NCBI GenBank assembly: GCA_038249055.1
Contig: JBBRWS010000004.1
Span: 17,939 to 81,938 of the forward strand
Direction of reading: 5' to 3'
DNA from: Minisyncoccia bacterium
Lineage (GTDB): Bacteria > Patescibacteriota > Minisyncoccia > Phycocordibacterales > UBA9973
DNA: 64,000 nucleotides
Part shown: in pieces, positions 13,778 to 49,325 of the stretch
Layout: each line of letters begins with the position of its first letter
Position numbering within the stretch: position 1 is the stretch's first letter
Translations under genes and position numbers: made by a program
The notes under the pieces: generated by a model
The model's database searches: none
What the model was told of the DNA's origin: nothing
What the model saw: only the letters and a program-made list of their open reading frames with translations

Positions 13778-13803
13778 GATTATTAAATTTTACATTGTAT
13801 AAT
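13776..13803 (+). promoter_or_regulatory. sigma70-like promoter TTGATT-16-TATAAT upstream of grpE
   Basis: Read directly from the sequence. Confidence 0.55.
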
Positions 13804-13850
13804 ACTAGAATGTATAAAAATTTAAATTATTATTAATATAATAAAAAAAT

Positions 13851-15043: not shown

Positions 15044-15169
15044 GTTGTGTATTATATCACTATTCGTGTATTATACAATAGTTTTGCGGTCACGAAATAC
15101 TTGTCAAAATAAAAAGGTAGGTGTATACTATATGCGTGTTTTGGATTTTTAAAAATATAAAATAGCTTT

Positions 15170-15246
15170 TTTCAAAATACGCACATAATTTTCTACTGAA
15201 AATTTGTTATGCTCGGGCCGTCGCCCTCCGCAATGTATTTTTCAAA
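15170..15246 (+). promoter_or_regulatory. conserved structured intergenic motif, copy 2 (hairpin GGGC-cgtc-GCCC at 15215-15226), upstream of dnaK
   Basis: See copy 1. The stem shows compensatory base changes relative to copy 1. Confidence 0.5.
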
Positions 15247-15364
15247 AACTATTTTATTTTTTTTAAAAATTTATAAATTTATTATCAAAACATTATTAAT
15301 TATCTGGTTTAGTTTTTATTTCTAGTCACTAGAAACTAACTACTAGAACCTAATCAAAAAATAT

Positions 15365-23913: not shown

Positions 23914-24837
23914 TTAACTATTCAATATTTTTATAAAATCCCTAGTAAACATTTTTTTATTAATTTTAGTAACTAGGTTTATGTTACAATTTTTATCACC
24001 ATAGGTTCTTTTTTCCATCACAGTCATACCTCTTGTATATTCTCCCTTTGTTTCAATTCTAATATCAGCCTTAATTAAAGAATATGCACTTGGGTTAATC
24101 AAGTAGTATCCAGCTAAAGCGTCATAAACTAAAGCGCCTTTTATTTTCTCAAAATTATTTATTCCTTCGATAAATTTTTTCATCATTGATATAATTGGTC
24201 TATATAGATTTCCTTTTTTAAGGCATTCAAAATCTTTCATAGTTAAAACTATTTTATTACATACATCGAGAGGAACTAGAATAATTTTTGCACCTGAATT
24301 AAAGACAATTTCAGCAGCCTCTGGATCGACAAAAATATTAAATTCAGCAGTTCTATTTTTATTTCCTGGACAATCAATCGCTCCACCCATAATAATAAAT
24401 TCCTTAACCAGTTTTGGTAAATTAGGTTCTTTTATTATAGCCTTTGCAATATTTGTTTCCGGGCCAATTACAACAATAGAAGTCCGACCCGGATTAGTCT
24501 TAATTATCTCGATTATCTTATCGACAGCTAGACCGTTTAGGGGCTCTTCTTTGGCTATTGTGGCCCCATCTAGACCGCTTTCACCGTGAACATTAGCCAA
24601 TATTAAGTCTCTACTTAAGGGTTTTTCAGACCCAGAATATATAGGTATTCCACCATCAACTAAATCAATTATATATCTTGCATTATCGGTAACATTTTTT
24701 AATGTTGAATTTCCGGCCACTGTGGCAATAGCTTTAATATCAACAACGCCAGACTTTTGTAATAGTAGAATAGCCAAGGCATCATCATGACCTGGATCAG
24801 TATCTATTATAATTTGTTTTTTTATATATTTTTTCAT
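23914..24837 (-). CDS. nucleoside hydrolase (inosine-uridine-preferring (IU-NH) family)
   Basis: IIIDTDPGHDDALAI is the hallmark Asp cluster. Confidence 0.85.
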   Translation of the reverse strand: MKKYIKKQIIIDTDPGHDDALAILLLQKSGVVDIKAIATVAGNSTLKNVTDNARYIIDLVDGGIPIYSGSEKPLSRDLILANVHGESGLDGATIAKEEPLNGLAVDKIIEIIKTNPGRTSIVVIGPETNIAKAIIKEPNLPKLVKEFIIMGGAIDCPGNKNRTAEFNIFVDPEAAEIVFNSGAKIILVPLDVCNKIVLTMKDFECLKKGNLYRPIISMMKKFIEGINNFEKIKGALVYDALAGYYLINPSAYSLIKADIRIETKGEYTRGMTVMEKRTYGDKNCNINLVTKINKKMFTRDFIKILNS

Positions 24838-24853
24838 AAATTTATTTAATATA

Positions 24854-25528
24854 TTAATTTATAATTTTTTCCAAACTTAAACTTTTATATAGTTCCTCGA
24901 TATTTTTTATTGTTTTATATTCATTATTTTCTAAATCAGTAATATATATAACATTTAACCCCGCTTCAATGGCTGGAAGTATATCTGAACCAAGAGAATC
25001 TCCAATCATAACAACTTCATCTGGATTAACTGAATATTTTACACAAATATCCTCATATATTTGTTTACTACCACCTTTAGGCATTTGACCTCCTTTTTCC
25101 CAAGCGATGATAAAATCAAAATTATTTTCATCGACATCTATAGCCTTTAAAATTTTTAAAGCTTGGATTGTAGGCCCATCTGTAATAGCACCCACAATAA
25201 AGCCTAATTTTTTTAGATTTTTTAATAATTCATTTGAATAAAGAATTACACTTAAATATTCTTCTGGATTAAGTGACAGTATCGCATCATACCAAACCCC
25301 AATATCTAATCCCGATAATTCAAAACTATATTCACCACGACCATTATATTTACGACGACAATCATCTGCTATTTTTTTACCTTCTTGTAATGATATATTT
25401 AATTCTCTGGCCAAAGTGCTCTCAAGTGTTCTTGAATACTGCGAATAAAATAATTTCGCTTTTTCGCCATATGAAAGGGTATTATCTATATCAAACAATA
25501 CTATTTTGATTTTATTTTTATTTATCAT
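24854..25528 (-). CDS. HAD-superfamily hydrolase (subfamily IA-like)
   Basis: Motif I LFDIDNTL and motif IV GDSLGSDI. Confidence 0.75.
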   Translation of the reverse strand: MINKNKIKIVLFDIDNTLSYGEKAKLFYSQYSRTLESTLARELNISLQEGKKIADDCRRKYNGRGEYSFELSGLDIGVWYDAILSLNPEEYLSVILYSNELLKNLKKLGFIVGAITDGPTIQALKILKAIDVDENNFDFIIAWEKGGQMPKGGSKQIYEDICVKYSVNPDEVVMIGDSLGSDILPAIEAGLNVIYITDLENNEYKTIKNIEELYKSLSLEKIIN

Positions 25529-25546
25529 ATATTTTTATAAATTAAT

Positions 25547-25574
25547 TTAATAAAGCAAAAACACACTTCCGGAC
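25547..25574 (-). terminator. minus-strand terminator just upstream of the HAD gene
   Basis: acacacttccg gac ggaagtgtgt, with a T run on the minus strand. Confidence 0.6.
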
Positions 25575-25619
25575 GGAAGTGTGTTTAAGATGTTTAATAG
25601 CGATATTATAACAAATTAA

Positions 25620-25682
25620 CTAGAAACCACTCCACCCGAGGTGATGTAGTGTATGATGCCAATTTGTTTTAATAATCTTCAT
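25620..25682 (-). CDS. candidate 20-aa small ORF (MKIIKTNWHHTLHHLGWSGF), possibly leaderless
   Basis: It sits between two minus-strand terminators. On the minus strand a TTGACA-16-TAATAC promoter (25717-25690) places the transcription start site at the ATG. Confidence 0.2.
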   Translation of the reverse strand: MKIIKTNWHHTLHHLGWSGF

Positions 25683-25848
25683 ATTCTCAGTATTAACCTT
25701 TCTTTGGTTCTTGTCAACTGCCCATTAAAATTAATTTATTTAACAATCTCTTTAGTAAACGACTTTTCTACATCATTTAAATCTTTTTCATATAATGATT
25801 ATGTCATTTTATTGTTACTATAATAAAAAAGATTAAATTTCAAATCAT

Positions 25849-25877
25849 AAAAAAGCCGGAAATAATTCCGGCCTTTT
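25849..25877. terminator. bidirectional terminator after the minus-strand 25892 CDS
   Basis: aaaaaagccggaaataattccggcctttt. Confidence 0.8.
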
Positions 25878-25891
25878 ATTTGTTTAGATGT

Positions 25892-26308
25892 TTAGTAGCA
25901 GACTCTCATGAGCCCATAAACTTTAGTTCTAATATCATCTCTAATTTCACGCAATCTTTCGATAGATAAATTAAATGGATCTTCGATTTCCCATAGAGTA
26001 ACAGAAGGGTGTTTAAAGACAAAATCAGGACAATCTTCTTTTTTACACATAACAATTACCTTGTCGGCTGATTTTATCATTTCCTCAGTAATGTATTTAG
26101 CGCTTTTAGAAGAAAGATCAATCCTTTCTTCTCTCATGACTTGTATTACATTAGGGTGTAATCTTTTCCATAATGCGGGAGTAGAAGGATCAATACCGGC
26201 ACTTGAGGCATCATTTGAATCTGTCATTTGGTTATAAAAACCTTCTGCCATTTGACTCCTACCTACATTGCCATGACAAATGAATAATAATTTTGGATCT
26301 GTATTCAT
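25892..26308 (-). CDS. arsenate reductase (thioredoxin-coupled ArsC) / LMW phosphotyrosine phosphatase family
   Basis: P-loop LFICHGNVGRSQMAE, and a second Cys pair in VMCKKEDCP as in Bacillus ArsC. Confidence 0.7.
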   Translation of the reverse strand: MNTDPKLLFICHGNVGRSQMAEGFYNQMTDSNDASSAGIDPSTPALWKRLHPNVIQVMREERIDLSSKSAKYITEEMIKSADKVIVMCKKEDCPDFVFKHPSVTLWEIEDPFNLSIERLREIRDDIRTKVYGLMRVCY

Positions 26309-26492
26309 GAGATTAAATATTAGATTGTTTTAAGAATTTATTTATATTTATGGTACCATACCTTTAAAATAATACAAATTTGAATAGTTGGTGCACTTTT
26401 AAAAAGTTGCAAGTTTTATACTAGTATGCTAGTATATGCGTAAGTACTAATGCACATTAAATTCAAAAATATAAATACAAAAACCAAATATT

Positions 26493-27608
26493 ATGGACGT
26501 AAAAAGCTTACTTAAAGAAAAAGCATACCAAAACATTCCATTAAGTTTTGAAGAAGCTTATGAACTAGCAGCTTATACAATTGAGGGATGCAATGGTAAT
26601 GACCTTGCACAAATTCAATCAGTTGCTGTACTCTGTGCGTTGCATAATAAAGCAACATATCTTCACAAAGATGCATATCTTCAGATTGCTGGCATTTCTG
26701 CCGGAATCATTGATTTTGATATTAAAAAATCAATAAACGGATTTGCAAAACCAAAAGTTCCATATGTTGTTGATAACTGTGGAATGGGAGGAGATCACTT
26801 TGTAACTGCTAATGTTTCTACTTTAGCTGGATTAACTGCTGCATCTCTTGGTGTATACGTGTGTAAACATGGATCACCCGCAAATGCAGATAAGGGCAGA
26901 CAAGGAAGTTCAGATTTCATAAATTTTTGTGGAATACCAAACATCTTGCCTAAAAATGATATTGAAAGGATGATTGAATCTCATAGATTTGGTTATATTG
27001 AGGCTTTGGATACTAATTTTAAAGTTGTTCATCAGCAGACGCATAATTTTGCTCATCTGCCACATATGAATGACCTTATTGGCCCATTAACTCATCCTAT
27101 TGATCCTGTGCTTCTAAAGTATAAAATCATAGGGATTAATCATCTTGTACCAGTTGAAGTTGTAGTCAAGGCATTAAAAGTATTAAACGAAAAAGGATAT
27201 ACTTTTTTTGAAAAAGCTATGGCCGTTAGAGGAAGTGTTGGGTCTACAAATCAAGATGGAATTGATGAATTATCAATTACAAAATGGGGAACAACAGTTT
27301 CTGAATTATCTGAAAATGGTATTAGATCTTATTCTATCAATTCTGATGATTTCGGTATTAATCCAGTAGATAAATCATTTTTGACTCCGCCAAATGGTAT
27401 GAGTAAGGCTGATTTTTCGTTAAGTATTCTCAACAACGAGTCACCAAAAGAAAGTATTTATATGATTGCAGCAAGCAGTGCACTTATATTACAAATGGTT
27501 GGTGAAGTTAAAACTTTGAAAGAAGGATTTAATGTATCTTACGAACAGATTCGTTCTGGAAAAGTTGTTTCGTATTTATCAGATTTGAAAAATAGTATTG
27601 TTATTTAA
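26493..27608 (+). CDS. TrpD-like glycosyltransferase-family-3 protein (anthranilate phosphoribosyltransferase homolog), paralog 1
   Basis: DNCGMGGDHFVTANVSTLAGLTAASLGVYVCKHGSPANADKGRQGSSDF matches TrpD GTGGD...KHGNR...GSAD. Confidence 0.7.
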   Translation: MDVKSLLKEKAYQNIPLSFEEAYELAAYTIEGCNGNDLAQIQSVAVLCALHNKATYLHKDAYLQIAGISAGIIDFDIKKSINGFAKPKVPYVVDNCGMGGDHFVTANVSTLAGLTAASLGVYVCKHGSPANADKGRQGSSDFINFCGIPNILPKNDIERMIESHRFGYIEALDTNFKVVHQQTHNFAHLPHMNDLIGPLTHPIDPVLLKYKIIGINHLVPVEVVVKALKVLNEKGYTFFEKAMAVRGSVGSTNQDGIDELSITKWGTTVSELSENGIRSYSINSDDFGINPVDKSFLTPPNGMSKADFSLSILNNESPKESIYMIAASSALILQMVGEVKTLKEGFNVSYEQIRSGKVVSYLSDLKNSIVI

Positions 27609-27620
27609 ATTAACAATTTA

Positions 27621-27660
27621 GGGATAATTATTTTTTATAAATAATTATCCCTTTTGTTTT
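27621..27660 (+). terminator. rho-independent terminator
   Basis: gggataattat (loop) ataattatccc followed by ttttgtttt. Confidence 0.75.
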
Positions 27661-27689
27661 GTAATTATTATATTGTATAATCAATCATT

Positions 27690-28508
27690 ATGCCTACTAA
27701 ATTTAATTTTAATAAAAAAAATAATATCTTAATAGGGGCAGTGCACTTGCCTCCACTTCTTGGGTATCCAGATTTTCCTGGTTTTGAAATAGCACTTAGA
27801 AATGCAAAAACCGATTTAGAAACATTTCAAAAAGCTGGATTTGATGCAGTTATTATCGAAAACAATTATGATATTCCTCATTTTGAAAATGTTAACCCAT
27901 CTATAGGAATTTCTATGAGTATTTTGTGTTATCAATTAAAACAAATAGCAACAATACCCATAGGAATAAGTGTATTGTGGAATGATTATAAAACCGCACT
28001 TTCTATTGCAAAAACTATAGGGGCGGATTTTATTAGAATTCCTGTTTTTGTAGATACCGTTGAAACAAGTTACGGTGTTATTAAAGGTAACTCAAAAGAG
28101 GTTATTGATTTTAGAAAAAGTATAGACGCAGAAAATATTTTAATTTATACTGATATACACGTAAAACACGCGAAATTACTTTCTTCCTATTCTTTAATTG
28201 AATCAGCGACAAAGGCTATATCTGAGGGTAGTGATGGTCTAATAATAACCGGTAAATGGACAGGTGAACAACCTTCAATGGAAGACCTAAGGTCGGTTCG
28301 TGAATCTGTTGGCGATTTTCCAATTATTGCTGGAAGCGGTGTTGATAATAAAAATATTAAAGAAATATTTTCTTATGCGAACAGTTGCATTGTAAGTACT
28401 TCAGTAAAAGAAGGCATAAATAACAATAAAGAAATAAATATAAAAAACTATTCACAAAGAATTAACTTAGAAGAATGTATAAAATTAGTAAAAACAGTCA
28501 ACAATTAA
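27690..28508 (+). CDS. BtpA/SgcQ-family TIM-barrel protein
   Basis: LIGAVHLPPLLGYPDF...DAVIIENNYDIP matches the BtpA N-terminal signature. Confidence 0.65.
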   Translation: MPTKFNFNKKNNILIGAVHLPPLLGYPDFPGFEIALRNAKTDLETFQKAGFDAVIIENNYDIPHFENVNPSIGISMSILCYQLKQIATIPIGISVLWNDYKTALSIAKTIGADFIRIPVFVDTVETSYGVIKGNSKEVIDFRKSIDAENILIYTDIHVKHAKLLSSYSLIESATKAISEGSDGLIITGKWTGEQPSMEDLRSVRESVGDFPIIAGSGVDNKNIKEIFSYANSCIVSTSVKEGINNNKEINIKNYSQRINLEECIKLVKTVNN

Positions 28509-28521
28509 ATATAAAAATAAT

Positions 28522-28806
28522 ATGAAAAAAATTAAAACGAATGATTTAATTGATATAATAAATTCTATAAATAATGATAAAAATCTTTTAAATTCTTTTT
28601 TGACAGATTTATTGACACCAGCAGAATATACGGAAATAAAAAAACGTTGGGAAATTGTAAAAATGCTGAATGAGGGTATAAATCAACATCAAATATCAAA
28701 AAGTCTTCACGTTGGAATAGCTACAGTAACGCGAGGTTCTAGAGCCATAAAAGATTCAAAAGGTGGTTTTAAGAAAGTTTTAAATCAAAAAGACCATCTC
28801 AACTAA
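28522..28806 (+). CDS. YerC/YecD-family TrpR-like DNA-binding protein
   Basis: LLTPAEYTEIKKRWEIVKMLNEGINQHQISKSLHVGIATVTRGSR aligns with B. subtilis YerC. Confidence 0.7.
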   Translation: MKKIKTNDLIDIINSINNDKNLLNSFLTDLLTPAEYTEIKKRWEIVKMLNEGINQHQISKSLHVGIATVTRGSRAIKDSKGGFKKVLNQKDHLN

Positions 28807-28822
28807 TTAGCAGAGATGGTCT
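28791..28822. terminator. hairpin between convergent genes (agaccatctc / gagatggtct)
   Basis: A 10-bp stem. The YerC stop codon lies in the loop. Confidence 0.55.
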
Positions 28823-28852
28823 ATGATGGTTTAATTTTCAAATACACACTTT

Positions 28853-29953
28853 TCATGAAGTAATAATATCAGAGATTAATAAGTCGATTATTTTCTTATT
28901 TACATGTTGCATTACAACAATATGAGCTCTATCATTTTTTGTAGCAAGTTGCCACTTATTAATGATATTTTTTGATGGCTTATCAAAAGTTACAATATTT
29001 GAATTAATATTTAACTTAGGATTATAATGTATATCCATAAGCATCTTTTCCAAATATTTTGCATTTTCAATACATTCGATAGCTTCTTTTTTGAATCCGA
29101 TAATTCCCTTATTGTTTATTAATGCCCACAAAAATACTGCGAGCTGGCCATTTCTGGAGCCTGAGATAGTTGTATCGTCTGAGTCTATATATTCTATACA
29201 GTCGACAAAACTACCATGCGGTTTTTCTTTTGAAAGAAAAACACCAGAAGGAAAGGGGATACCAAAAAATTTATGAGCTGAGAGAGAAATACTATTAATA
29301 GGTTTATTAAAATTTAATTCATGTTCAATGCCTAAAAAGGGAAGAAACCCTCCAAATAAGGCTGCATCACAGTGAATATAAAAATTTTCATGTGATGTTT
29401 CTTTGAGTATGGATAAAACTTTATCAACATCATCAATAGCTCCATCAAAAGTAGTTCCTATAGTTAAATTAAGAATAGGAATTTTTCTTTCCTTGGATAA
29501 GAGATCATAAAGGTTTTCATAATTCATTTCACCATTTGATGATTCAACTTCCGCATATGGAACATTAAGAATAACTGAATTTTTCTTAATTGAATAATGC
29601 CCATCTGCTGAGTAAATTACTCCATCTGGATACTTGTTTCTTCCAAGAAGAAGCCCCATCAAATTACTTTCTGTTCCACCATTCGTAAGGTATCCCCACG
29701 AATTTTGGTCAAGGTTATAAATTCCTTTAAAGAATTCGAGCACTTTTTGCTCATATTCTTTTGAGTGCATTCTGTACGAACCATCCGTACAGCTTGGATC
29801 ACCTACATTGTTAATAACAAAATCAAAGAATTTATAAAATTCTGAAAAATCATTATTAAGATTACCAGGAAAACCTAGCATAAATGGAGCACTAGATTGC
29901 AGTCGCCAGTAAAACTGGCGCATTTCATCAGTCAACGTTATTAAAGCTTTCAT
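28853..29953 (-). CDS. PLP-dependent histidine decarboxylase-family (group II) decarboxylase
   Basis: SWGYLTNGGTESNLMGLLLGR and PLP-Lys context ISLSAHKFFGIPFPSGVFL. Close to bacterial HdcA (about 378 aa). Confidence 0.75.
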   Translation of the reverse strand: MKALITLTDEMRQFYWRLQSSAPFMLGFPGNLNNDFSEFYKFFDFVINNVGDPSCTDGSYRMHSKEYEQKVLEFFKGIYNLDQNSWGYLTNGGTESNLMGLLLGRNKYPDGVIYSADGHYSIKKNSVILNVPYAEVESSNGEMNYENLYDLLSKERKIPILNLTIGTTFDGAIDDVDKVLSILKETSHENFYIHCDAALFGGFLPFLGIEHELNFNKPINSISLSAHKFFGIPFPSGVFLSKEKPHGSFVDCIEYIDSDDTTISGSRNGQLAVFLWALINNKGIIGFKKEAIECIENAKYLEKMLMDIHYNPKLNINSNIVTFDKPSKNIINKWQLATKNDRAHIVVMQHVNKKIIDLLISDIITS

Positions 29954-30140
29954 ATTGCTTATATTTAATTTTTAGGGCAAAATTGCCAACTATCCTTACT
30001 TAAAATGATACTACGCTAAATTACATTAGTCAATATGGCTGAATAATGTCTAAATGCATTTAGCACTTTTGTATATTTTGTATGCTATCGCACATATACT
30101 GTTTTTTTGCGAGTGGAGAAAAAATAAATAAAATTATATG

Positions 30141-30296
30141 ATATAATACGACCTATATGACATGGTTTATTATTGTAGTTGGAGCTTCATTTTTATGGGT
30201 ATTGGTAAATATTGCCAATCAATACCTTGTTTCTAAATTTTCTCAAAAGGAAAAGAGTTCCGGTGGTCTTGTTTTATTTTCTAGTCTCAGAAGTAT
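30141..30296 (+). repeat. diverged direct duplication (copy A) of the EamA-transporter promoter-proximal region and 5' coding end
   Basis: About 80% nt identity to 37295-37443. The atataatac...atgacatggttt stretch is shared. Confidence 0.7.
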
Positions 30297-30342
30297 GTTT
30301 ATTAGTATTTTTAATGTTTCTAGTTTATATACATTAATTTAA
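30157..30342 (+). pseudogene. N-terminal fragment / paralog of the EamA-like transporter gene (61 codons)
   Basis: MTWFIIVVGASFLWVLVNIANQYLVSKFSQKEKSSGGLVLFSSL compared with MTWFFIALGAPFLWAIVNIADQFLVSKYSEKEKERSSGGLVLFSSL at 37304. It then diverges and stops. Confidence 0.6.
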
Positions 30343-30407
30343 TTAATCTCATGAGGTTTATTTATTCTTAGGGTTATTTTATAAATTTAAAATATTTTTA
30401 ATAAATT

Positions 30408-31616
30408 ATGGAAATCAATATTACTTTATCGGATGAGGAATTAAAAGAAATAGCTTTAAAGCAGAATAAATCGATTGAGGAGGTTGCGAATGATTATAAG
30501 CACATGATAAAAGATTTAGGTTATTCAAATAAAAAACTTAACGAAATAATCGAGAACTCCGCCTATATCAGGTTTCCTAATAATTTTTTACTACACGGAT
30601 ACGGTAAAAACAACGAGCTTAACTCAAAATACTTATGCTATGATAATTTAGATATTTTTAATGAAATTCCAAAAACCGAGTTAGCTATAGTTACAGGATT
30701 CGGTCCTACTAATTCTCCAACCGCTGGTACGCTGTGTTCAATTTTTAGAGTACTTGAACTTCAAAAACTAACTGGAATTTATACTCATATAATTATTTCA
30801 GAATTAAGTGCATTAAATTCAAGACAAAAGCCATTAAATGAACTAATAAAAAATTCTCATCAGTTTATATCATTTATTAAAAAATTAGGCTTTGATGAGA
30901 AAAATGGTGAGATTAGAACACACAACCACCATGATCATTCTCGGGTATTTTCACTTGTTTCTAGTGTTTTAAGTATTAGTGATTTGCTCGAAAAAATAGA
31001 AGTCACCAATGATACGTATAAAAGACTGCAATTACTTGGAAACGATTTCTCAAAAATGGTGAGCAGAACATATACAATGACAGACATTATATTACCAATA
31101 GTACGTGATAAAAAACGAGGAGTAATAGTTCCATTAGGATTGGAAGAACACCACCATCCTCATTTAGCGAGAATAGCACTAAATAGAATGAAACTAAAAA
31201 TAGGAGGTCTGGATAGTTTAGTTAAACACGACGCTGAAATTGGAGCATTACACGGGAAGCTTATTAGCGGTTTCTTTCCTTATGTTAAAATGTCAAAAAG
31301 TATTCCTGATTCTTCAATAAATCTAGGAGATAGTGAAGAAGAATTACATAAAAAAATAATAGAATGCGGGATAAGAAATGAAGAGGTTATTTTACAAATG
31401 ATGATACTTGCTTCCAATTGGAGTCCTGATAGATTAAATGAGGCAAAAAGTGCCTTTGAAAATTTAACAATAGATTACAAGCGATGGGAAAAGATAAAAT
31501 ATGACTATTTAAAGTTTTTTACTGAAATTAAAACTCTTTGGGAGGAGTCAAAATATGATAAAGAAATTAATACACACGAAGAGCTATTTTCAAATATAGG
31601 GGACACGGAAAAATAA
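30408..31616 (+). CDS. divergent tryptophanyl-tRNA-synthetase-like class I aaRS paralog (402 aa, N-terminal extension)
   Basis: Degenerate HIGH region TGFGPTNSPTAGTL (compare TrpRS TGxxPSGxxTIGN). KMSKS is intact (YVKMSKSIPDS). Confidence 0.55.
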   Translation: MEINITLSDEELKEIALKQNKSIEEVANDYKHMIKDLGYSNKKLNEIIENSAYIRFPNNFLLHGYGKNNELNSKYLCYDNLDIFNEIPKTELAIVTGFGPTNSPTAGTLCSIFRVLELQKLTGIYTHIIISELSALNSRQKPLNELIKNSHQFISFIKKLGFDEKNGEIRTHNHHDHSRVFSLVSSVLSISDLLEKIEVTNDTYKRLQLLGNDFSKMVSRTYTMTDIILPIVRDKKRGVIVPLGLEEHHHPHLARIALNRMKLKIGGLDSLVKHDAEIGALHGKLISGFFPYVKMSKSIPDSSINLGDSEEELHKKIIECGIRNEEVILQMMILASNWSPDRLNEAKSAFENLTIDYKRWEKIKYDYLKFFTEIKTLWEESKYDKEINTHEELFSNIGDTEK

Positions 31617-31650
31617 AAAAACACTACAATATAAGATTATTGTAGTGTTT
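31614..31650. terminator. bidirectional terminator between the convergent TrpRS-like gene and trpS
   Basis: aaaaaaacactacaat ataagatt attgtagtgttt. Confidence 0.8.
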
Positions 31651-31678
31651 CTAGATTTCAGTTTGTTGAGAAAAAAAA

Positions 31679-32686
31679 TTAATTTTCTTCAAAACCCATG
31701 GCTTTTTCAACTCTTTGGATAACCTCATTGGCATTTGCGCGAGCAATAGAGATGCCTTTTTTCAAAACTTCAGCCACTTGTTCATCTGAAATTTGTGTGC
31801 GTCTCTTTTGAAAAGAAGTAGTGAACTCAATGATAATATCAGCAACAAGTGTTTTGAATTTACCCATCACTTTCTCACCATTGAGATGTTGTTCAATAAG
31901 CGCATTAACTTCGCCTAATCTTTCTGGAGCGATAGCTTTTACAATAGCAACAAGATTGTCGAGCTTTTCACTTGTTTGCCCTTCGATGGCAGTCTCAGCT
32001 CTTTTCATTTTCTTTCTGATGTCTTCTGGACTATCATTAAGAAAAATTGCTCCTTCTGGTTTACTCTTGCTCATTTTTCCATCCCCAGTTAGTGACAAAA
32101 TGTTTACTGGTTCGTCGATGTTCATGGTTTCTGGACGGACAACAATTTTTCCGCCATTGCCATACTTGTTATTAAAAGCGTCAGCAAGTTCGCGAGCAAC
32201 TTCCATATGAGAAAATTGATCTTTTCCTACTGGAACCAACTGAGCATCCTGCAAGAGAATATCAGCTGCCATCATAATTGGATATGCCATAAGGAGGACG
32301 GTTGCTTGTTCTGGATTTTGTCCATCTTTTAATTTTTCCTTCAAAGTTGGCACGCGAGTCGCACGAGAAACAGTAATATGACGCTCGAGATAAAGTTTGA
32401 GCAAGGCAACCTCTTTGCGGAGACCACGTTGGTCAAAGATAACTATTTTCGATGGGTCTAATCCCAAAGCAATATAGTCCTTCACGATATCGCCTACTTT
32501 TAACTGTTCGGGTTCATGATCTGTTAGACCATGTAGAGTTGCAACGAAAACTAAAATTTCGCTTGATTCATTCAGCTTCTGCAATTCCAACAAAGGAAAT
32601 GTAGCACCAATCAAATTAGCGATAGTCAGGGTTGCAGTAGGTCTGATTCCTGTCAAAATTCTTTTCTTTGATTCTATTTTTTCCAT
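31679..32686 (-). CDS. trpS: tryptophanyl-tRNA synthetase
   Basis: RILTGIRPTATLTIANLIGA (a TIGN-type HIGH variant, as in Bacillus TrpRS) and KMSKSKPEGAIFL. Confidence 0.85.
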   Translation of the reverse strand: MEKIESKKRILTGIRPTATLTIANLIGATFPLLELQKLNESSEILVFVATLHGLTDHEPEQLKVGDIVKDYIALGLDPSKIVIFDQRGLRKEVALLKLYLERHITVSRATRVPTLKEKLKDGQNPEQATVLLMAYPIMMAADILLQDAQLVPVGKDQFSHMEVARELADAFNNKYGNGGKIVVRPETMNIDEPVNILSLTGDGKMSKSKPEGAIFLNDSPEDIRKKMKRAETAIEGQTSEKLDNLVAIVKAIAPERLGEVNALIEQHLNGEKVMGKFKTLVADIIIEFTTSFQKRRTQISDEQVAEVLKKGISIARANANEVIQRVEKAMGFEEN

Positions 32687-32883
32687 GGTTATATTTTTTA
32701 ATGAATTTATAGTGAATTATATCATTTTATGAGAAAATGTCAATGCTATAAATCTGATTAATTCTAATAATATCAGTATAGTTTTTTACTTTAAAATAAG
32801 CAAACTCAAATGTATCGTTATAATACAATTTATTGACACTTAATCTATTCATTGATATAATATTGTTTACTAAATTAAATATT

Positions 32884-34008
32884 ATGTATAATACTTTTTT
32901 AAGTGATAAAAATATTAGAGAACCGTACGAAACATTTTACAAACTGAATATTGGTTTATCGATTGATGAGTTTGAAGCACAAAACGCTATGCTGGAAATC
33001 TTTAATGAAAAAGACTTACAGAAAAAAACATATCTATTGACAATGTTACTAAATGGAATAATGATTAAGGGTCCTTCTGTGTCTGAGGTAAAAGGTTTAA
33101 TTAATGCTTCTTTATCCTTAGATGGTATACAAAAAAAACAAAAAATTACATTACCAAATAATGAATTGTTGGTTGGCGTAGCTGGTAGTGGAAAAAAGGG
33201 TTTTAAAACTATAAACATAACTACACCTGCTAGTTTTGTTGCTGCTGCCTGTGGTGCATATGTTGCAAAAGCGTGTTCTCATTCGACGTCGTCAAAAACA
33301 GGTTCCTCCGATTTTTTAGAATTAGTAGGTATTAATATAGATATTCCTTTTGTGGAAAAAGTAGAAATTTTGAAAAAGAAGAAAATTTCTTTTTTTTCAA
33401 TTGAGGATACTACTCCAAAATTTGCGGATGTTTATGGGGGTATATTTCATGCACCGCATGCAATGAGTTTTGCTTTGGCTGGGCTTAGCTTTCCGATACA
33501 AATTGATACTCTTGTGTATGGTTTATCACATCCTAATATTAAATTGTCTTTAGAGGTATATAAAGAATATGGTTTTAAAAATGTTTTAGTCTACTCATCT
33601 AGTGAGGATGGGGTACATTTTTTAGACGAACTCTCCATATCCGGGCGTGTAAATATCATTGGTATGAAAAATTATAAAGTTGGACAAACAGTATCAGCTA
33701 ACATAATAGATGAGTTTCCTTTTTTCTCAAATAGTAATTTAAAAGAATTAGCAGAAAAGGAATATCCAATTGATAACGTGAAATGTTCTCTAAAGGTACT
33801 TAATGGTACAGGTCTAAAAAGTCATATTGAAACTATATGTCTTAATGCGGCACCAATTATTCTTGCGGCTGGAAAAGTCAATTCATTAAAAGAGGGATAT
33901 TTGTTGGCAAAGAAAAATATTGAAAATGGAGAAGTATTTAAATTATTTTTAGAAGTTGTTGAATTGTATGGAGGAGATAGAAATAAAATATATAATATAA
34001 TTGACTGA
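32884..34008 (+). CDS. TrpD-like glycosyltransferase-family-3 protein, paralog 2 (degenerate GTGGD); the ORF could begin at 32833
   Basis: VGVAGSGKKGFKTINITTPASFVAAACGAYVAKACSHSTSSKTGSSDFLELVGI. Confidence 0.6.
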   Translation: MYNTFLSDKNIREPYETFYKLNIGLSIDEFEAQNAMLEIFNEKDLQKKTYLLTMLLNGIMIKGPSVSEVKGLINASLSLDGIQKKQKITLPNNELLVGVAGSGKKGFKTINITTPASFVAAACGAYVAKACSHSTSSKTGSSDFLELVGINIDIPFVEKVEILKKKKISFFSIEDTTPKFADVYGGIFHAPHAMSFALAGLSFPIQIDTLVYGLSHPNIKLSLEVYKEYGFKNVLVYSSSEDGVHFLDELSISGRVNIIGMKNYKVGQTVSANIIDEFPFFSNSNLKELAEKEYPIDNVKCSLKVLNGTGLKSHIETICLNAAPIILAAGKVNSLKEGYLLAKKNIENGEVFKLFLEVVELYGGDRNKIYNIID

Positions 34009-34915
34009 GAAAAATAGACAAGTTATGAATACAATACACAATAACAATCGTCATCCAGAAATTTTTCTGGGAACTTGGCGTATGGGAGGGGATGTTGAGG
34101 TAAATCCAAACAATGACGATGGAAGAGATGTTGACGCTATAAAATATGCAATTACTAGGGGTATTTCTCATATTGATACCTCAGAAAGTTATGCAAATGG
34201 CAAAACCGAGTTACTCATCAGTGATGCAATAAGACAATTTTCTAGAGATAGGTATTTTATAGCAACCAAAGTTCGTGAATACAATCTCTCTTATGATAAT
34301 ATCATTCGCTCTTGTATGAAATCTCTAGAAAGGCTAAATGTGTCATATATTGATTTATATTATATTCACAAACAAAATCCTCTTGTTGCAATAGAAGATA
34401 TCGCGAGAGCATTAAATAAACTGATGGAAATGGGTCTAATTAAAAATGTGGGGTTAAGTAATGTTGGAATTAATACAATAAAAAAATATTCCCAACTACT
34501 AAATAAACCAGTGTATGCGGTTCAAAATCAATATAATCTAGTCTGTCGTGAATCGCAAAGAAAGGGTATTATAGATTATTGTAAAAAAAATGGCATTAAG
34601 TTCATTGCGTGGAGACCTGTTCTACTTTCGTATCCCGGAGTCATAGACCCTTATTATCGTACTGGCACATATCAACTTCTAGATGAAATGGCTCAAAAGT
34701 ACAATAAATCAAATACTCAAATTGTAGCTAAATGGCTTTTACAGCAAGATGGTGTTTCAATTGTTTTTAAAAGTTCAAATAAAAAACATATTGATGAGAT
34801 TTTAGATGTAGACAATTTTAATCTTTCTGAAGCTGATTGGAATATCTTAGATAAAAATTTTCCAGTACAAAAAGATGTCGGATGTACTGCTGATGCATAC
34901 TTTGAGGTGTCATAA
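34001..34915 (+). CDS. aldo/keto reductase
   Basis: IDTSESYANGKTELLI...IATK and the wider aldo-keto reductase (AKR) fold pattern. It overlaps the upstream gene by 8 nt. Confidence 0.8.
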   Translation: MTEKNRQVMNTIHNNNRHPEIFLGTWRMGGDVEVNPNNDDGRDVDAIKYAITRGISHIDTSESYANGKTELLISDAIRQFSRDRYFIATKVREYNLSYDNIIRSCMKSLERLNVSYIDLYYIHKQNPLVAIEDIARALNKLMEMGLIKNVGLSNVGINTIKKYSQLLNKPVYAVQNQYNLVCRESQRKGIIDYCKKNGIKFIAWRPVLLSYPGVIDPYYRTGTYQLLDEMAQKYNKSNTQIVAKWLLQQDGVSIVFKSSNKKHIDEILDVDNFNLSEADWNILDKNFPVQKDVGCTADAYFEVS

Positions 34916-34937
34916 TAAAATAAAAATATAAAACTAT

Positions 34938-36032
34938 ATGAAAAAAGAACATAGTACCGTACTAGAATTAGTAAAATATGGTAACAAAAAAATAGATAAG
35001 TTATTGGAGATACTTGACGATAAAACCATAAATTGGATCGAGGTCTTGGGATACCTGTGTTATCATCGTGTTAGTGGGCTTGCCTATGAGATTATGAACT
35101 CAATTGAGGTAAGGAAGCTCGATTTTCCTGTATTTTTTACAATATATATGATTCATGAGTCTCAAGGAATAAGAACAAATTTGCAAAAAGAATATATAAA
35201 AATAATTTCTTCTAAATTATGCGAAGCTAATATAAAGCATGTTTTCTTAAAGGGGTCTGTTTTATCAAGTACTATTTATCCGATAGGCGCTAGGGCCTCT
35301 AATGATATTGATATATTGGTATCAAAAAAATCAATTTTAGAAGCTAAAAATGTATTGAATGATTTAGGGTTTTTGCAGGGTAAATATGATTACAAAAAAG
35401 ATGCCATCGATGAGGCTGACCAAGATGCACTTACAAAAAGTCTGAACACTAGAGGCGAAATGTTTCCATTTATTAAAATAATTAACGAGAGAACCGCTAA
35501 AACTATAGATGTTGATGTTAATTTCTCACTAGATTGGACACCAAATTCTTCGGATAGCGCAGTTGATTATTTTTTAGAAGAACGAACTCTTCTTCCTGTT
35601 GATGGAGATTTTTCAATTTATTCTTTAACAGAAGAACATTTATTTATCCATTTGTGTAGCCACCTATACAAAGATGCGGCTTTATTAGACATTGTGAAAA
35701 AAAGAAAAGTACTAGACCTGTATAAATTTGTTGATATATATACATTTATTCAAAAGTATTTCGAGCGGATTAATATTGAAAAGATATATAAAGATTCTGT
35801 AAAATATGGTTTTGATAAAAATGTTTTCTTCACACTAAATTACACCTCTATAATTTTTCCAGAGATATTGGAAATACCTAATGTTGTTTTACTTCATAAA
35901 AAATTTAATTATATAAACGATAATGTTATGGAAGAAATTTTTGACCAGGATAATCCTGAAAACAAAATGATAGATAGAGGTGGTTTAATTGATAGATTAT
36001 TTTCGTATGATATCATAAATAAATATAACTAA
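34938..36032 (+). CDS. Pol-beta-superfamily nucleotidyltransferase (NTP_transf_5 / PF14907-like)
   Basis: FLKGSVLSSTIYPIGARASNDIDILV carries the GS...DxD nucleotidyltransferase signature. Confidence 0.55.
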   Translation: MKKEHSTVLELVKYGNKKIDKLLEILDDKTINWIEVLGYLCYHRVSGLAYEIMNSIEVRKLDFPVFFTIYMIHESQGIRTNLQKEYIKIISSKLCEANIKHVFLKGSVLSSTIYPIGARASNDIDILVSKKSILEAKNVLNDLGFLQGKYDYKKDAIDEADQDALTKSLNTRGEMFPFIKIINERTAKTIDVDVNFSLDWTPNSSDSAVDYFLEERTLLPVDGDFSIYSLTEEHLFIHLCSHLYKDAALLDIVKKRKVLDLYKFVDIYTFIQKYFERINIEKIYKDSVKYGFDKNVFFTLNYTSIIFPEILEIPNVVLLHKKFNYINDNVMEEIFDQDNPENKMIDRGGLIDRLFSYDIINKYN

Positions 36033-36046
36033 TAATTGAAATTCCT

Positions 36047-37210
36047 ATGAATAATTTAACCTTAAGCACAGAATTATCTGAAATATTTAGTTGTAGTATT
36101 AAAACTATAAAAAATGATTTAAACCATACATTTCATACGATGATGAGTGATAGTCTGACGACAACTATTACATGTAACTATGCCTTATGTTCTGATCATT
36201 TGAAGGAATTCAGTAGTACTTTTAATGCTCTGATGAAACCTTCGCAGAATAATAGTCGTACTATCATTAGTGCTTTTGTTTTAGAAAATGAAGATATTTT
36301 CCAAAAAATAGAATCTGTGTTTCTATATGAAGGTTGGTCAAAGAACAGTGATATAAATAAATTTAATTTAGCAACTCATGATACATCCAGAGCTAAATGC
36401 ACAGCTGAAAATAAGTTTTACATAATTAAATGCTATGATCATTTTTATTATATTTATAACACAGAATCTAATGAGTGCCTGCTTGTAGTAAAGGACGAAA
36501 AAAAAGCTTTGACTATGATTAATATTTTATTACTATCGCCATATTTATCATATGGTGATTTATATGCTATCCATGGTGGATTGGTAAGTAATGGAAATAA
36601 TAATATCCTTCTTACTAATTTATCTTTGGGTGGAAAAACCACATTTGCTTTGCTTTTTTTAGAAAATGGATGGAAAATTGTGACAGAGGAAACTACATAT
36701 ATTACAAAACATGGACAGATACTAAATTATAATATAAGAAATTATTTCAATATCAGAGTTGGTACATATTTGGAATTTAAAGATTTTTTTATGAAAGCTG
36801 GTATTGTTAATGACTTCTTTTTAAGTATGGCAAACATGGATAAAAATGAATTATTTAAACTTGGGAAGAAAGAACAAATGCTAATATATTTTGATATTTT
36901 ATCTAAGGATAAAGCTAATTTACCAAATGATCAGATAACCCATACATTAAGAGTTTCTCTTGATAAAAACAAATCCGGTATTACGATTGAGAGTAGTAGT
37001 GGTCATGAAGAGATTGTCGACGGGTTCCTAGAAATAAGTTTTGCACCAACTGTTACACTTTTTAAAGGTCTGTTAAAGATAACTAATGTAGTTAAAGAAA
37101 AAAGTAAAAATGGGTTAATGCAAATATTCAAAACTGTAAAAAGTTACTCGTTAATATCTGGTCTTGATTACAGAAAAAATTTTGATTTTCTAATACAAGA
37201 AATAAAGTAA
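36047..37210 (+). CDS. HPr-kinase/phosphorylase C-domain-like P-loop protein
   Basis: IHGGLVSNGNNNILLTNLSLGGKTTFALLFLENGWKIVTEETTYI compared with the HprK_C consensus lHG..v...g.GvLltG.SGiGKSe.aLeLi.rGh.LvaDD.v. Confidence 0.5.
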   Translation: MNNLTLSTELSEIFSCSIKTIKNDLNHTFHTMMSDSLTTTITCNYALCSDHLKEFSSTFNALMKPSQNNSRTIISAFVLENEDIFQKIESVFLYEGWSKNSDINKFNLATHDTSRAKCTAENKFYIIKCYDHFYYIYNTESNECLLVVKDEKKALTMINILLLSPYLSYGDLYAIHGGLVSNGNNNILLTNLSLGGKTTFALLFLENGWKIVTEETTYITKHGQILNYNIRNYFNIRVGTYLEFKDFFMKAGIVNDFFLSMANMDKNELFKLGKKEQMLIYFDILSKDKANLPNDQITHTLRVSLDKNKSGITIESSSGHEEIVDGFLEISFAPTVTLFKGLLKITNVVKEKSKNGLMQIFKTVKSYSLISGLDYRKNFDFLIQEIK

Positions 37211-37294
37211 ATAAAACTCCTTTATAAAGATTTTAGTAAAGTTTTAGAAGAAGCATGTCTGTATATTAAAACAATATAAAGATTTTATGTTACA

Positions 37295-37443
37295 ATATAA
37301 TACATGACATGGTTTTTTATTGCACTTGGAGCTCCATTTTTATGGGCAATTGTAAATATTGCGGATCAGTTTCTAGTTTCTAAATATTCAGAAAAAGAAA
37401 AGGAGAGGAGCTCTGGGGGGCTTGTTTTATTTTCTAGTCTCAT
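37295..37443 (+). repeat. diverged direct duplication (copy B) at the start of the full-length EamA transporter gene
   Basis: Pairs with 30141-30296. Confidence 0.7.
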
Positions 37444-38224
37444 AGGTATTTTTATTGCTATTTTTATTGCTATCTTTACAACTGGTATTTTAGATGTAAG
37501 TAATTTAGATATTATTTTATTGCTTTTAGCTGGAGGATTATCTATTGTTTGGATTATTTTATATTTATACGCTATTGAAATTGAAGATATTTCAGTTATT
37601 GTACCTTGGTTTTTAACTGTCCCTATTTTTGGATTTATTCTAGGTTATATTTTTCTAGGAGAAACATTATCTACCTCGCAAATTTTTGGTTCCATTGTTG
37701 TATTTTTTGGGTTGATTTTACTTTCTATTGATTTTTTCGAGAGAAAGATTACTGCAAAAAAGAAAACAATTATATACATGCTTATTGCGTCTTTAATAAT
37801 TGCTTGCTCTGGTGTTTTATTTAAATTTGTAACGATTGAGGGTAATTTTTGGGTATCTTCATTCTGGGAATATTCTGGATTAGGAATAACAGGCTTATTT
37901 TTATATATCTTTATTCCTAAATATCGTAATGAATTTTTGTATATGCACAGAATGGGAGGAAGAAAGATTCTTATGGTTAATATAACAAGTGAATTAATGA
38001 CTATTTCAGGTAATTTAATGACAAATTTTGCCTTATTGTTGGCTCCAGTAAGTATGGTTTATCTTGTGGGAAGTTTTCATCCGGCGATTGTTTTAATTTT
38101 AACTATTATCGGTTCAAAATTTTTCCCTCATATTATAAAAGAAAATATTTCAAAAAAAGCTCTACTTCAAAAATTTATCGCAATTTTTATTATGATTATA
38201 GGCAGTGTATTTTTATTTAAATAA
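37304..38224 (+). CDS. EamA/DMT-superfamily transporter (about 10 TM helices)
   Basis: Multi-TM hydropathy pattern with two EamA-like halves. Confidence 0.6.
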   Translation: MTWFFIALGAPFLWAIVNIADQFLVSKYSEKEKERSSGGLVLFSSLIGIFIAIFIAIFTTGILDVSNLDIILLLLAGGLSIVWIILYLYAIEIEDISVIVPWFLTVPIFGFILGYIFLGETLSTSQIFGSIVVFFGLILLSIDFFERKITAKKKTIIYMLIASLIIACSGVLFKFVTIEGNFWVSSFWEYSGLGITGLFLYIFIPKYRNEFLYMHRMGGRKILMVNITSELMTISGNLMTNFALLLAPVSMVYLVGSFHPAIVLILTIIGSKFFPHIIKENISKKALLQKFIAIFIMIIGSVFLFK

Positions 38225-38339: not shown

Positions 38340-38816
38340 ATGAAGAAAATCGTTTTTTTAATGGCGATGATTGCTGTAGTTTTTACAGTTTCCGCCCAGG
38401 AAAAAACAGGGATAAAAGTTATCCCTGAAGTTAGGCTCGAGCCAGTCGTCTGGTTTGGTGGAGATAAAATGGTCTTTGAACCCACTGTGTCTATGGGTGC
38501 AAGGTTTGAACTCGGAAACTTTTCGGTTTTTCCGGCCTACAATGTTGGCTATTCTGACGAAGTTTGTCACAGCATGATCCTTTCTATCGATTATGTCCCT
38601 AAAAAATTTGGGGGATATTTGTATCTTAGTAAAGACCTTGGTTCGGAATATTTATATTCCGAAATAGGAGTGCAGTACATCTTTGCTTTTGGAAAGAAAG
38701 AAAGATTCAAAATCAATCCATTTGCCGGAGTCGGTCGTGATATGATCATTTACCCAGGTGATCCATTAGAATTTTACGCTACATTAGGTGTAAACTTTAT
38801 TTATTCTTTTAAATAG
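38340..38816 (+). CDS. hypothetical secreted protein
   Basis: Signal peptide MKKIVFLMAMIAVVFTVSAQE. Confidence 0.5.
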   Translation: MKKIVFLMAMIAVVFTVSAQEKTGIKVIPEVRLEPVVWFGGDKMVFEPTVSMGARFELGNFSVFPAYNVGYSDEVCHSMILSIDYVPKKFGGYLYLSKDLGSEYLYSEIGVQYIFAFGKKERFKINPFAGVGRDMIIYPGDPLEFYATLGVNFIYSFK

Positions 38817-48495: not shown

Positions 48496-48620
48496 CCCGT
48501 TAGAAGTAGATAATCTTTAGATTATCGTACATAAAATTAAATAATAATGAGGAAATTTACCAAAATTTAACAACATCCTCATTTAGAAAATTACATGCAT
48601 AACTTCTAACGGGATCATGA
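48496..48620 (-). promoter_or_regulatory. structured 5' leader of dnaB with nested inverted repeats
   Basis: cccgttagaagt (48496-48507) pairs with acttctaacggg (48604-48615). An inner pair atgagga / tcctcat is also present. Confidence 0.35.
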
Positions 48621-48837
48621 GAGTTATTGTATCATCAATTTAGTTTACCCGAAACTTGATTATTCTAATAAATATGTGCGTAAAATGTGCAAAACTATTT
48701 GTTATTTGGTATTATATAGGTCATGAATAAAAGATTATTATCGGGAATAAAACCATCCGGAGCAAAAAAAGCTAAAATTATTGCAGTGGATAAAATAAAA
48801 ATTATTAGAAATAATATCAGAATAAATATTTAAATTT

Positions 48838-49050
48838 ATGAAATATATTTTCGCTCTTATTCTCTTAATACTTAATCTTGTCGCTGTACCTTTGAATATT
48901 CTTTATATGAAAGTTCAAAAATGGTATTTACCAATGTGGAAAAAAGATAAAGTTATTTATTTTGCTTTCGCACCCTTTTATTGGATACTTGTTGGATTAA
49001 CCTTTGCTTTTGGATACCCATGTGACATATTAGCAAGGCTTGTTCATTAA
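48838..49050 (+). CDS. hypothetical small membrane protein (2 TM)
   Basis: Hydrophobic ORF. Weak support. Confidence 0.3.
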   Translation: MKYIFALILLILNLVAVPLNILYMKVQKWYLPMWKKDKVIYFAFAPFYWILVGLTFAFGYPCDILARLVH

Positions 49051-49064
49051 AATTTTACTTGTAA

Positions 49065-49268
49065 ATTTATCTGTGATATTATAAGAAAGTAGCCATTGAT
49101 CCAGATGACACTGGGGAGGCGAGAGAAGAAAGCCTTTTGGTAAGTAGAACTCTCCGTTAATCTGCGTAAAAGATTACGAATTAAGTTATAAAGTAGGGTG
49201 GCACCGCGAACCAAAAATCGCCCCTGCAAATTTATCAATTAGATAAGTTTGAAGAGGCGATTTTTTGT
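49065..49268 (+). promoter_or_regulatory. T-box riboswitch leader (Asp specifier GAC) preceding aspS
   Basis: T-box sequence agtagGGTGGcACCGCG at 49192-49208. GAC lies in the stem I specifier region (49107-49109). AGAGA motif at about 49122. Terminator atcgcc...ggcgatttttt at 49214-49267. Confidence 0.75.
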
Positions 49269-49325
49269 ACCAATAATGATATAATAAATTATTGAAACAT
49301 TTAAACACAACTTCAACATTTTTTT

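Follow-up and report, generated by a model that had tools for sequence, protein, structure and literature searches.

The 64,000-nt stretch of the Minisyncoccia bacterium contig JBBRWS010000004.1 analysed here (hereafter the window) carries a block of six genes between two diverged direct copies of the 5′ region of a gene for an EamA/DMT-family transporter (hereafter EamA). We consider it likely that a mobile module with a tryptophanyl-tRNA synthetase (TrpRS) gene of its own was inserted into the EamA 5′ region, that the target was duplicated in the process, that the remnant left behind has since decayed, and that the TrpRS of the module has replaced the native enzyme. The original prediction, made from the DNA letters, had proposed that insertion or recombination brought a DNA segment into the transporter gene at its 5′ end and left a remnant copy. 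This proposal is supported by the discreteness of the module, by an intact EamA in 40 relatives and by the decay of one copy. What had been missed is that the block belongs to a 13.4-kb variable region, that the module is widespread and mobile, and that the native trpS gene has been deleted.

BLASTN within the window pairs 30121–30316 with 37268–37469 (78.4% identity over 204 columns, E = 4e–42 to 8e–40), and a repeat search finds ungapped blocks of 102 and 72 nt at 82–83% identity. The two copies were found where the prediction had placed them (30141–30296 and 37295–37443). Over the first 140 coding nt, the left-hand copy (copy A) and the right-hand copy (copy B) are 83.6% identical; overall identity is ~78–84%, and the longest perfect run is 22 nt. 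The duplication is real, but about twice as long as the ~150 bp first described. Homology in copy A runs past the stop codon of its open reading frame (ORF) to ~30381, that is, to EamA codon ~86 instead of codon 61, after deletions of 6 nt and ~27 nt. EamA residues 1–86 align to copy A by tblastn, and the local score of the homology extension is 37 versus 16 ± 3.1 (maximum 31) in ~3000 random windows of AT-rich sequence. The duplicated target measures ~310 nt, from –36 to ~+272 of EamA. Upstream of the ATG only ~36 nt are common to the copies, and of the promoter that had been thought to be duplicated at most a –10-like element, not a full promoter, is present twice.

Copy A (30121–30381, plus strand) extends from –36 to ~codon 86 and abuts the left end of the module directly. 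It has acquired a ~6–8-nt indel in the short leader, the 6-nt and ~27-nt deletions and a stop at codon 62. The 61-codon ORF within it (30157–30342, plus strand) is a pseudogene fragment with no Pfam match, and no Rfam match was found in the copy A region. Copy B (37268–37576, plus strand) is the retained copy, continuous with the rest of EamA (37304–38224, plus strand), an intact gene of 306 aa recognised by PF00892 and by its orthologs in relatives. A 44-nt filler separates the right end of the module from the start of copy B (37224–37267). A segment of 14.6 kb including both junctions was found at 100% identity in the Logan assembly of run SRR19962012. Since copies that are ~80% identical cannot be confused by an assembler, and since the two assemblies agree, an assembly artefact is excluded.

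The two copies have had different fates. With L003, L004, L006 and L010 (comparison loci are given by L-numbers) as outgroups, we assigned the nucleotide changes to branches. In the first 146 nt, 14 changes are derived in copy A, distributed over codon positions 1, 2 and 3 as 6:4:4, and two are derived in copy B, both at third positions; in the remainder, 14 changes are A-derived and five B-derived. In total there are 28 A-derived changes, spread evenly over codon positions, seven B-derived changes, mostly at third positions, and three shared derived changes. By the polarised substitutions, copy A is therefore a neutrally decaying, unconstrained pseudogene and copy B part of a gene under purifying selection. 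The ~80% identity of the copies largely reflects the decay of copy A and therefore points to an old insertion, in agreement with the earlier argument against a fresh target-site duplication. The possibility that the 61-codon ORF is a conserved independent small gene was rejected: among 5.8 billion proteins its product has no homolog except itself.

EamA orthologs were identified in 40 species-representative genomes (38 at 54–78% aa identity, two more distant at 36–40%), all of them metagenome-assembled genomes of Patescibacteria (Paceibacteria/Nomurabacteria-type). In 40/40 of these related species EamA is intact and none of the six bracketed genes occurs within 10 kb; no relative has the gene order of the window without the duplicated fragment. 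A conserved backbone is readable in L004, L005, L010, L012, L025, L027 and L035, in the order deoxyhypusine-synthase-like gene, arginase-family gene, EamA, a 273-aa gene, a histidine kinase gene, further genes, dnaB, trpS and a class II aminoacyl-tRNA synthetase (aaRS) gene. The arginase-family gene abuts EamA in L027, whereas in the window 13.4 kb lie between the two. The left part of this space (23914–29953, ~6 kb), which relatives do not have between these two genes, holds seven genes: IU_nuc_hydro, HAD, LMWPc, a first TrpD-like gene, BtpA, a TrpR-family gene and a histidine-decarboxylase-like pyridoxal phosphate (PLP) enzyme gene. L010 retains a 3′ remnant of a TrpR-family gene (9865–9972; residues 56–91, 78% identity to the TrpR of the window) directly upstream of EamA, the rest being replaced by glycosyltransferase genes, which is a further sign of gene turnover at the site. 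The 13.4-kb gap in the window and the L010 remnant together define the space upstream of EamA as a variable region; the 7-kb bracket is its youngest layer and 23914–29953 is older.

The inserted cargo, a six-gene Trp module of 6.85 kb, occupies 30379–37223. The same segment matches L042/L043 and L047–L053/L058 at 87–90% nt identity with unrelated flanks. In L042/L043 it lies between Peptidase_S51 and LPG_synthase_C genes; in L047–L052 and L058 ychF and leuS stand to its right; in L053 a PAD_porph gene stands to its left. The left end of the module is 29 nt before the first ATG and the right end 13 nt after the last stop codon. Both ends are common to the window and L042 within a few nt; L047, L053 and L058 have a variant in common that extends ~25 nt further to the left and ~35 nt further to the right. 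The edges fall exactly within the bracket formed by the two EamA copies, copy A reaching the left edge and the 44-nt filler lying between the right edge and copy B. Elsewhere the six genes are kept together in other orders and orientations, on contigs of GC 0.28–0.61 labelled WS2, Bacilli and Parvarchaeum. Among the module-bearing genomes compared, no flank gene is shared with the window. The 87–90% nt identity, the common ends and the unrelated flanks show the module to be a discrete, widespread and mobile unit. A metagenome scan with the HPrK-like protein encoded by its last gene yielded nine loci, none at EamA, and two IMG/VR queries found no module in viral contigs.

GC has no clear step across the block, and with the exception of trpS the module genes depart only slightly from the usual codon usage (z = –0.75 to –1.4). 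The codon-usage shift that had been suggested as a check is mild, and clear only in the module trpS (GC3 0.31 versus 0.18 ± 0.04, z = –3.1).

Two other occurrences of the module have neighbours of a different kind. In L045 (3852–9635 of the 1.1-Mb contig BOLA01000001), it adjoins a gene for a 524-aa serine recombinase, a Replic_Relax gene and an HTH_36 gene, which could be an integrative mobilisable element (IME) that carries or abuts the module. In L063, a 72-nt inverted repeat (6507–6578 and 13762–13832; 87.5% identity) flanks the module, upstream of two inward-facing operons, the TrpD-like and the trpS one, and suggests a shared regulatory region.

In relatives, an intact native trpS follows dnaB and precedes the class II aaRS gene. 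The corresponding interval of the window (48496–49325) contains no long ORF. Alignment to relatives reveals a 36-codon in-frame stub (48723–48833, plus strand), in which 13 residues at the start and ~22 at the end correspond to the two termini of native TrpRS. The flanking sequences align to L010 (window 48660–48760 with L010 19069–19170, 82%; window 48766–49035 with L010 20037–20304, 74%), and therefore native trpS has suffered an internal deletion of ~866 nt. Within the window, no intact TrpRS gene was found other than the module trpS, which is ~32% identical to native trpS in relatives. As far as the 64 kb examined are concerned, sequence comparison thus indicates that native trpS has been replaced by the foreign TrpRS of the module. 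In the same interval, a T-box leader-like element (49087–49228, plus strand; 49.8 bits, E = 8.6e–10, below the Rfam gathering score of 93) precedes the class II (Asp/Asn/Lys-type) aaRS gene at 49326.

The arrangement of an orphan 5′ gene fragment, a cargo and an intact gene is not confined to the window. A scan of 857 kb of fetched candidate phyla radiation (CPR) loci revealed four more such events at three loci (L002, L015 and L042). In L002 (173–1368), the target is again EamA, with an independent 5′ remnant of 29 codons (repeat of 87 nt, 88% nt identity); the cargo, encoded on the opposite strand, is an AbiEii/DUF6922 toxin-antitoxin pair. The upstream regions of the two L002 copies show no relationship in sequence, but each contains a hairpin and, after it, a –10-like element. 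In L015 (11760–16341), the gene next to EamA was hit by a 4.1-kb cargo comprising a VanX-like gene, an Asp racemase gene, a gene of no assigned family and a gene for a 577-aa arginyl-tRNA synthetase. The L015 repeat (246 nt, 98.8%) is perfect over 227 nt, and its only three mismatches fall within the 20 nt of the left copy that adjoin the junction; this is the youngest case of the geometry. In L042 (4762–4851, 6603–6686 and 14665–14811), two nested remnants of the 5′ end of an LPG_synthase_C gene part successive cargo blocks, and the older remnant is further from the gene. The younger event (repeat from –21 to codon 21, 95%) brought Peptidase_S51 together with the six-gene module, which forms part of the inner block, and the older one (repeat of codons 15–42, 90%) an acetyltransferase gene and an AstE-like gene. 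Duplication lengths across events are ~84, 87+, 246 and ~310 nt, and targets and cargoes differ.

No junction motif is common to the parallel events and none of their cargoes contains a recombinase. The mirror image, a 3′-end remnant, was not seen among the five events, which is only suggestive. A 13-nt motif that occurs twice in L042 was considered as a junction signal and rejected, being local to that contig family apart from one apparently unrelated match in L039. Direct repeats in L004, L011, L018, L023, L040 and L064 were likewise discarded as insertion scars; they are paralogs, tandem genes or shared upstream regions.

How the module arrived has to be reconstructed from these traces. In the account that we favour, the 6.85-kb module would have entered the Paceibacteria/Nomurabacteria-like CPR genome by recombination ~86 codons into EamA, duplicating ~310 nt of the target (–36 to ~+272). 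The right-hand copy would have stayed joined to the gene, so that EamA remained intact and under purifying selection, and the left-hand copy would have become a pseudogene that has since gained ~12% substitutions, three indels and a stop codon. Native trpS would have been lost later by internal deletion, the module having brought its own tryptophan-free bacterial-type TrpRS. The route would be an integrase-free, homology-based insertion-duplication, for which two variants fit. Either a circularised DNA with the module and an EamA 5′ fragment would have integrated by a Campbell-type single crossover, or imported DNA, anchored by homology, would have recombined illegitimately. The lack of a recombinase, a transposase, terminal inverted repeats or a tRNA target, together with the recurrence of the geometry, favours this class of route. 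We put forward homologous recombination as the specific pathway only tentatively. An in situ duplication and a homologous fragment that arrived with the cargo, the latter raised by the original prediction, are both compatible with the locus.

The present state of the locus would follow from the same events. Copy A keeps the –10-like element and may now serve as the promoter of the first module gene, which encodes a TrpRS-like protein, and EamA may be read through from the module; no terminator-like site was found in the interval from copy A to the first module gene or in that from the last module gene to EamA. The repeats retain no more than 22 nt of perfect identity, which makes excision by homologous recombination unlikely today; with native trpS also gone, the module appears to be locked in and is probably essential.

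The geometry is that of Campbell-type insertion-duplication, as in insertion-duplication mutagenesis: direct repeats of a promoter-proximal target segment flank the insert, the left copy is 3′-truncated, the right copy heads the intact gene, no transposase or integrase is needed and the repeat length is arbitrary. The circular permutation of the gene order of the window in L054/L065 is a weak hint that the module can exist in circular form. Unlike in the textbook case, there is a 44-nt filler, no circular intermediate has been seen, the source of the incoming EamA fragment is unexplained and the module has the same ends in two unrelated contexts. The second variant resembles homology-facilitated illegitimate recombination (HFIR), described in natural transformation of Acinetobacter and Streptococcus and in E. 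coli conjugation (PMC3240628). There too, one homologous arm (here the EamA 5′ region) anchors foreign DNA, the other end is joined illegitimately and no mobile-element genes are involved; such a process would suit CPR bacteria if DNA uptake occurs. Classical HFIR usually deletes or replaces recipient DNA, whereas here a 310-nt duplication was left.

Several observations weigh against this account as a whole or against its homology-based route. The module ends of the window and L042 agree within a few nt in different flanks, which fits an element of fixed extent better than fragments taken up at random by recombination; the large serine recombinase and Replic_Relax genes beside the L045 module make site-specific mobilisation in trans possible; and the filler at the right junction is not accounted for by a simple single crossover. 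The split between copies A and B is deep in the tree (three shared derived versus seven B-derived changes). This depth fits an old in situ event and two alleles from different lineages alike; relative to the outgroups, it allows the two copies to stem from two related lineages. The 90% protein clusters of EamA and of its neighbour gene have one member each, so that a close strain for comparison is lacking, and since only 64 kb of the genome were seen, another trpS could exist elsewhere.

Among the alternatives, the duplication could have been made by the insertion itself, through fill-in of staggered breaks ~310 nt apart or through replicative template switching akin to microhomology-mediated break-induced replication or fork stalling and template switching (MMBIR/FoSTeS). 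In the latter case, the fork would leave EamA at ~+272, copy the module from co-resident foreign DNA and re-enter at –36, so that the copies start out identical and copy A then decays. Such an origin would accommodate the varying lengths (~84, 87+, 246 and 310 nt), the L015 repeat that is perfect except at its junction, the filler DNA, the lack of a common junction motif, and the assignment of nearly all changes to the copy A branch. Against it, no donor template or microhomology was identified, the identical module ends in two contexts are left unexplained, and the unrelated upstream regions of the two L002 copies are better explained by two alleles. Duplications so long are, to our knowledge, not documented for bacterial insertion mechanisms, and we think this origin rather unlikely, though a serious rival. 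A DDE transposon or insertion sequence was rejected: there is no transposase, the module does not end in terminal inverted repeats, and the duplication is ~310 nt and not 2–15 bp.

The discrete ends shared with L042, the 22-nt perfect core inside the repeats and the recombinase and Replic_Relax genes next to the L045 module would also suit a site-specific island. A tyrosine or serine recombinase would then have acted in trans at an attB within EamA, as for IMEs or integrase-less cis-mobilisable elements (CIMEs), a 5′-end mimic on the element would have restored the gene, and the repeats would be attL and attR. Gene-end mimicry is well known for integrative elements, and islands, integrative and conjugative elements (ICEs), IMEs and CIMEs inserted at gene ends share with the window a discrete cargo, gene-end direct repeats, a target kept functional and a remnant on the far side. 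Nevertheless, we regard such an island as improbable. There is no recombinase in or near the block: among the ORFs examined at 21767–42964 no recombinase or transposase was detected by Pfam (three ORFs have no Pfam match), and no tRNA lies near it. Homology does not end at a short core; around the 22-nt run it covers ~120–150 nt on each side and reaches the module edge. Module sites differ (EamA in the window, Peptidase_S51/LPG_synthase_C in L042, ychF in L047, after PAD_porph in L053), and, across the parallel events, targets and repeat lengths vary without a common target, core or motif and cargoes are unrelated; the viral contigs yielded no module. On these grounds an att-flanked ICE or IME was set aside. 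We give next to no weight to the reading that nothing was inserted, the 61-codon ORF being an independent small membrane-protein gene or the copies a two-strain assembly chimera. The ORF does run uninterrupted for 61 codons from an ATG, has a –10-like element and was annotated by a gene caller, but it has no homolog other than itself, its substitutions are unconstrained and EamA homology continues beyond its stop codon; two assemblies agree, and 80%-identical copies neither collapse nor cross-join. Integrase-free, homology-based insertion-duplication is therefore the reading that we carry forward.

The six genes named by the original prediction were confirmed by Pfam and NCBIfam models, those for the TrpRS-like and HPr-kinase-like proteins only at the level of fold. 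The first gene (30408–31616, plus strand) encodes a 402-aa class Ic TrpRS-like paralog of the archaeal/eukaryotic TrpRS fold type (PF00579 at 39 bits). Its best score, 41 bits, is far below all TrpRS equivalog cutoffs (176–891); by eye, KMSKS is kept and the HIGH and GxDQ motifs are altered. An AlphaFold2 model (mean predicted local distance difference test score, pLDDT, 83.9) has archaeal and human TrpRS as best full-length structural matches in the PDB. Judged from this model, the paralog works like or derives from TrpRS, although by sequence it is not a member of that family; its own family comprises 293 clusters at 60–92% identity. A 15-bp hairpin (31617–31652), terminator-like on the minus strand, separates it from the convergent module trpS (31679–32686, minus strand; 335 aa), a bacterial-type TrpRS gene (TIGR00233, 227.6 bits versus a cutoff of 176.75) with KMSKS present in the translation. 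This TrpRS has no tryptophan residues, versus a tryptophan frequency of 1.07% in the backbone. A tryptophan-free trpS product occurs in 7/8 modules checked (the window, L042, L047, L053, L054, L067 and L068); the exception, L045, has two trpS-like genes, one of which is tryptophan-free.

Upstream of trpS, a divergent promoter region (32716–32861) contains two outward-facing predicted sites that match the sigma-70 consensus perfectly, each with TG before the –10 box (minus strand 32743–32716, plus strand 32833–32861), and no palindromy worth noting. It is followed by a gene for a TrpD-like phosphoribosyltransferase-family protein (32884–34008, plus strand; PF00591), also without tryptophan and 374 aa long if counted from the ATG at 32884; the TTG at 32833 falls inside the –35 box. 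The protein is below the TIGR01245 cutoff, and its PDB matches by sequence are anthranilate phosphoribosyltransferases. The remaining genes, all on the plus strand, encode an aldo-keto reductase (34025–34915; PF00248, E = 1.4e–57), an NTP_transf_5 nucleotidyltransferase (34938–36032; PF14907, E = 2.2e–30) and a P-loop protein with a predicted HPrK/PEPCK fold (36047–37210), recognised at fold level and belonging to a 129-cluster family without a Pfam model. No PDB match by sequence was found for the TrpRS-like and HPrK-like proteins. At the gathering score Rfam detected no regulatory RNA and a single tRNA over the window. The PADLOC defence models gave a weak AbiEii-like match to the nucleotidyltransferase and none to the other five proteins.

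Mukai et al. 2017 (PMC5370408) reported related TrpRS paralogs of a non-canonical kind in CPR and DPANN, TrpRSs that lack tryptophan, noted in CPR, and trp-repressor genes nearby, and do not describe the six-gene set; literature searches on the gene combination found nothing relevant. As in the xenologous displacement of aaRSs and in auxiliary or antibiotic-resistant TrpRSs, the TrpRS of the window is foreign (32% identical to the native enzyme) and native trpS has been destroyed; a tryptophan-free TrpRS of bacterial type is accompanied by an archaeal-type TrpRS-like paralog, and a trp-repressor-family gene is nearby, as Mukai et al. report for their operons. In contrast to those systems, the module has neither a tRNA-Trp gene nor ‘ORF1’, and it is always accompanied by TrpD-like, aldo-keto reductase, NTP_transf_5 and HPrK-fold genes, which the paper does not mention.

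Further observations concern the surroundings of the module. The gene for the histidine-decarboxylase-like PLP enzyme (28853–29953, minus strand) stands just across the remnant from the TrpRS-like gene, and in L067, a distant ‘Bacilli’ scaffold, a Pyridoxal_deC gene (8249–9637) with 33% identity adjoins the TrpRS-like gene; the PLP decarboxylase and the module may be functionally linked. Between EamA and the 273-aa gene, a 158-aa ORF (38340–38816, plus strand) with a signal-peptide-like N-terminus occurs where no relative has one; it is the strongest codon-usage outlier of the region (GC3 0.36, z = –3.3) and is probably another foreign insertion. Elsewhere in the window, a 120-nt direct repeat (1202–1321 and 15152–15269; 79% identity) without Rfam match has one intergenic copy upstream of the gene at 1369 and one upstream of that at 15365, and may be a shared leader or regulatory element.

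In a natural-product gene cluster with a self-resistance aaRS, a divergent extra aaRS gene stands beside biosynthetic genes, a sensitive housekeeping copy lies elsewhere and the product is a known inhibitor. Here, a divergent TrpRS gene is always linked to five enzyme-like genes, and in the window the housekeeping trpS has been deleted. As a speculation to which we attach little credence, the module might be a self-protecting, addictive biosynthetic cassette, of a kind that CPR bacteria gain by the integrase-free route. The TrpRS-like ligase, TrpD-like transferase, reductase, nucleotidyltransferase and HPrK-fold kinase would build a tryptophan-nucleotide mimic that poisons ordinary TrpRS, and the tryptophan-free TrpRS would serve as immunity enzyme. 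Once the cassette had arrived, native trpS would no longer be needed or would do harm, and its deletion would thereby be accounted for. A general insertion-duplication route would rebuild the 5′ end of the gene that is hit and hand the promoter of the remnant to the cargo.

CPR/Patescibacteria have tiny genomes with few recognisable mobile elements, and their acquisition of genes is poorly understood. As a rearrangement, the scar is of a known kind; what is new is its integrase-free recurrence in CPR, the TrpRS-centred module and the loss of the native synthetase. In the window and in the four parallel events, gene blocks appear to have entered at gene 5′ ends with target duplications of 84–310 nt and no recombinase, their cargoes including aaRS genes and a toxin-antitoxin pair. 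The locus holds both halves of an essential-gene replacement, a foreign TrpRS in a mobile module and native trpS as a 36-codon stub, and the widespread, uncharacterised gene set around a TrpRS and its archaeal-type paralog is a concrete biochemical target. If this mode of insertion proves to be general, its scars could offer a means of dating and counting the genes that CPR genomes have gained.

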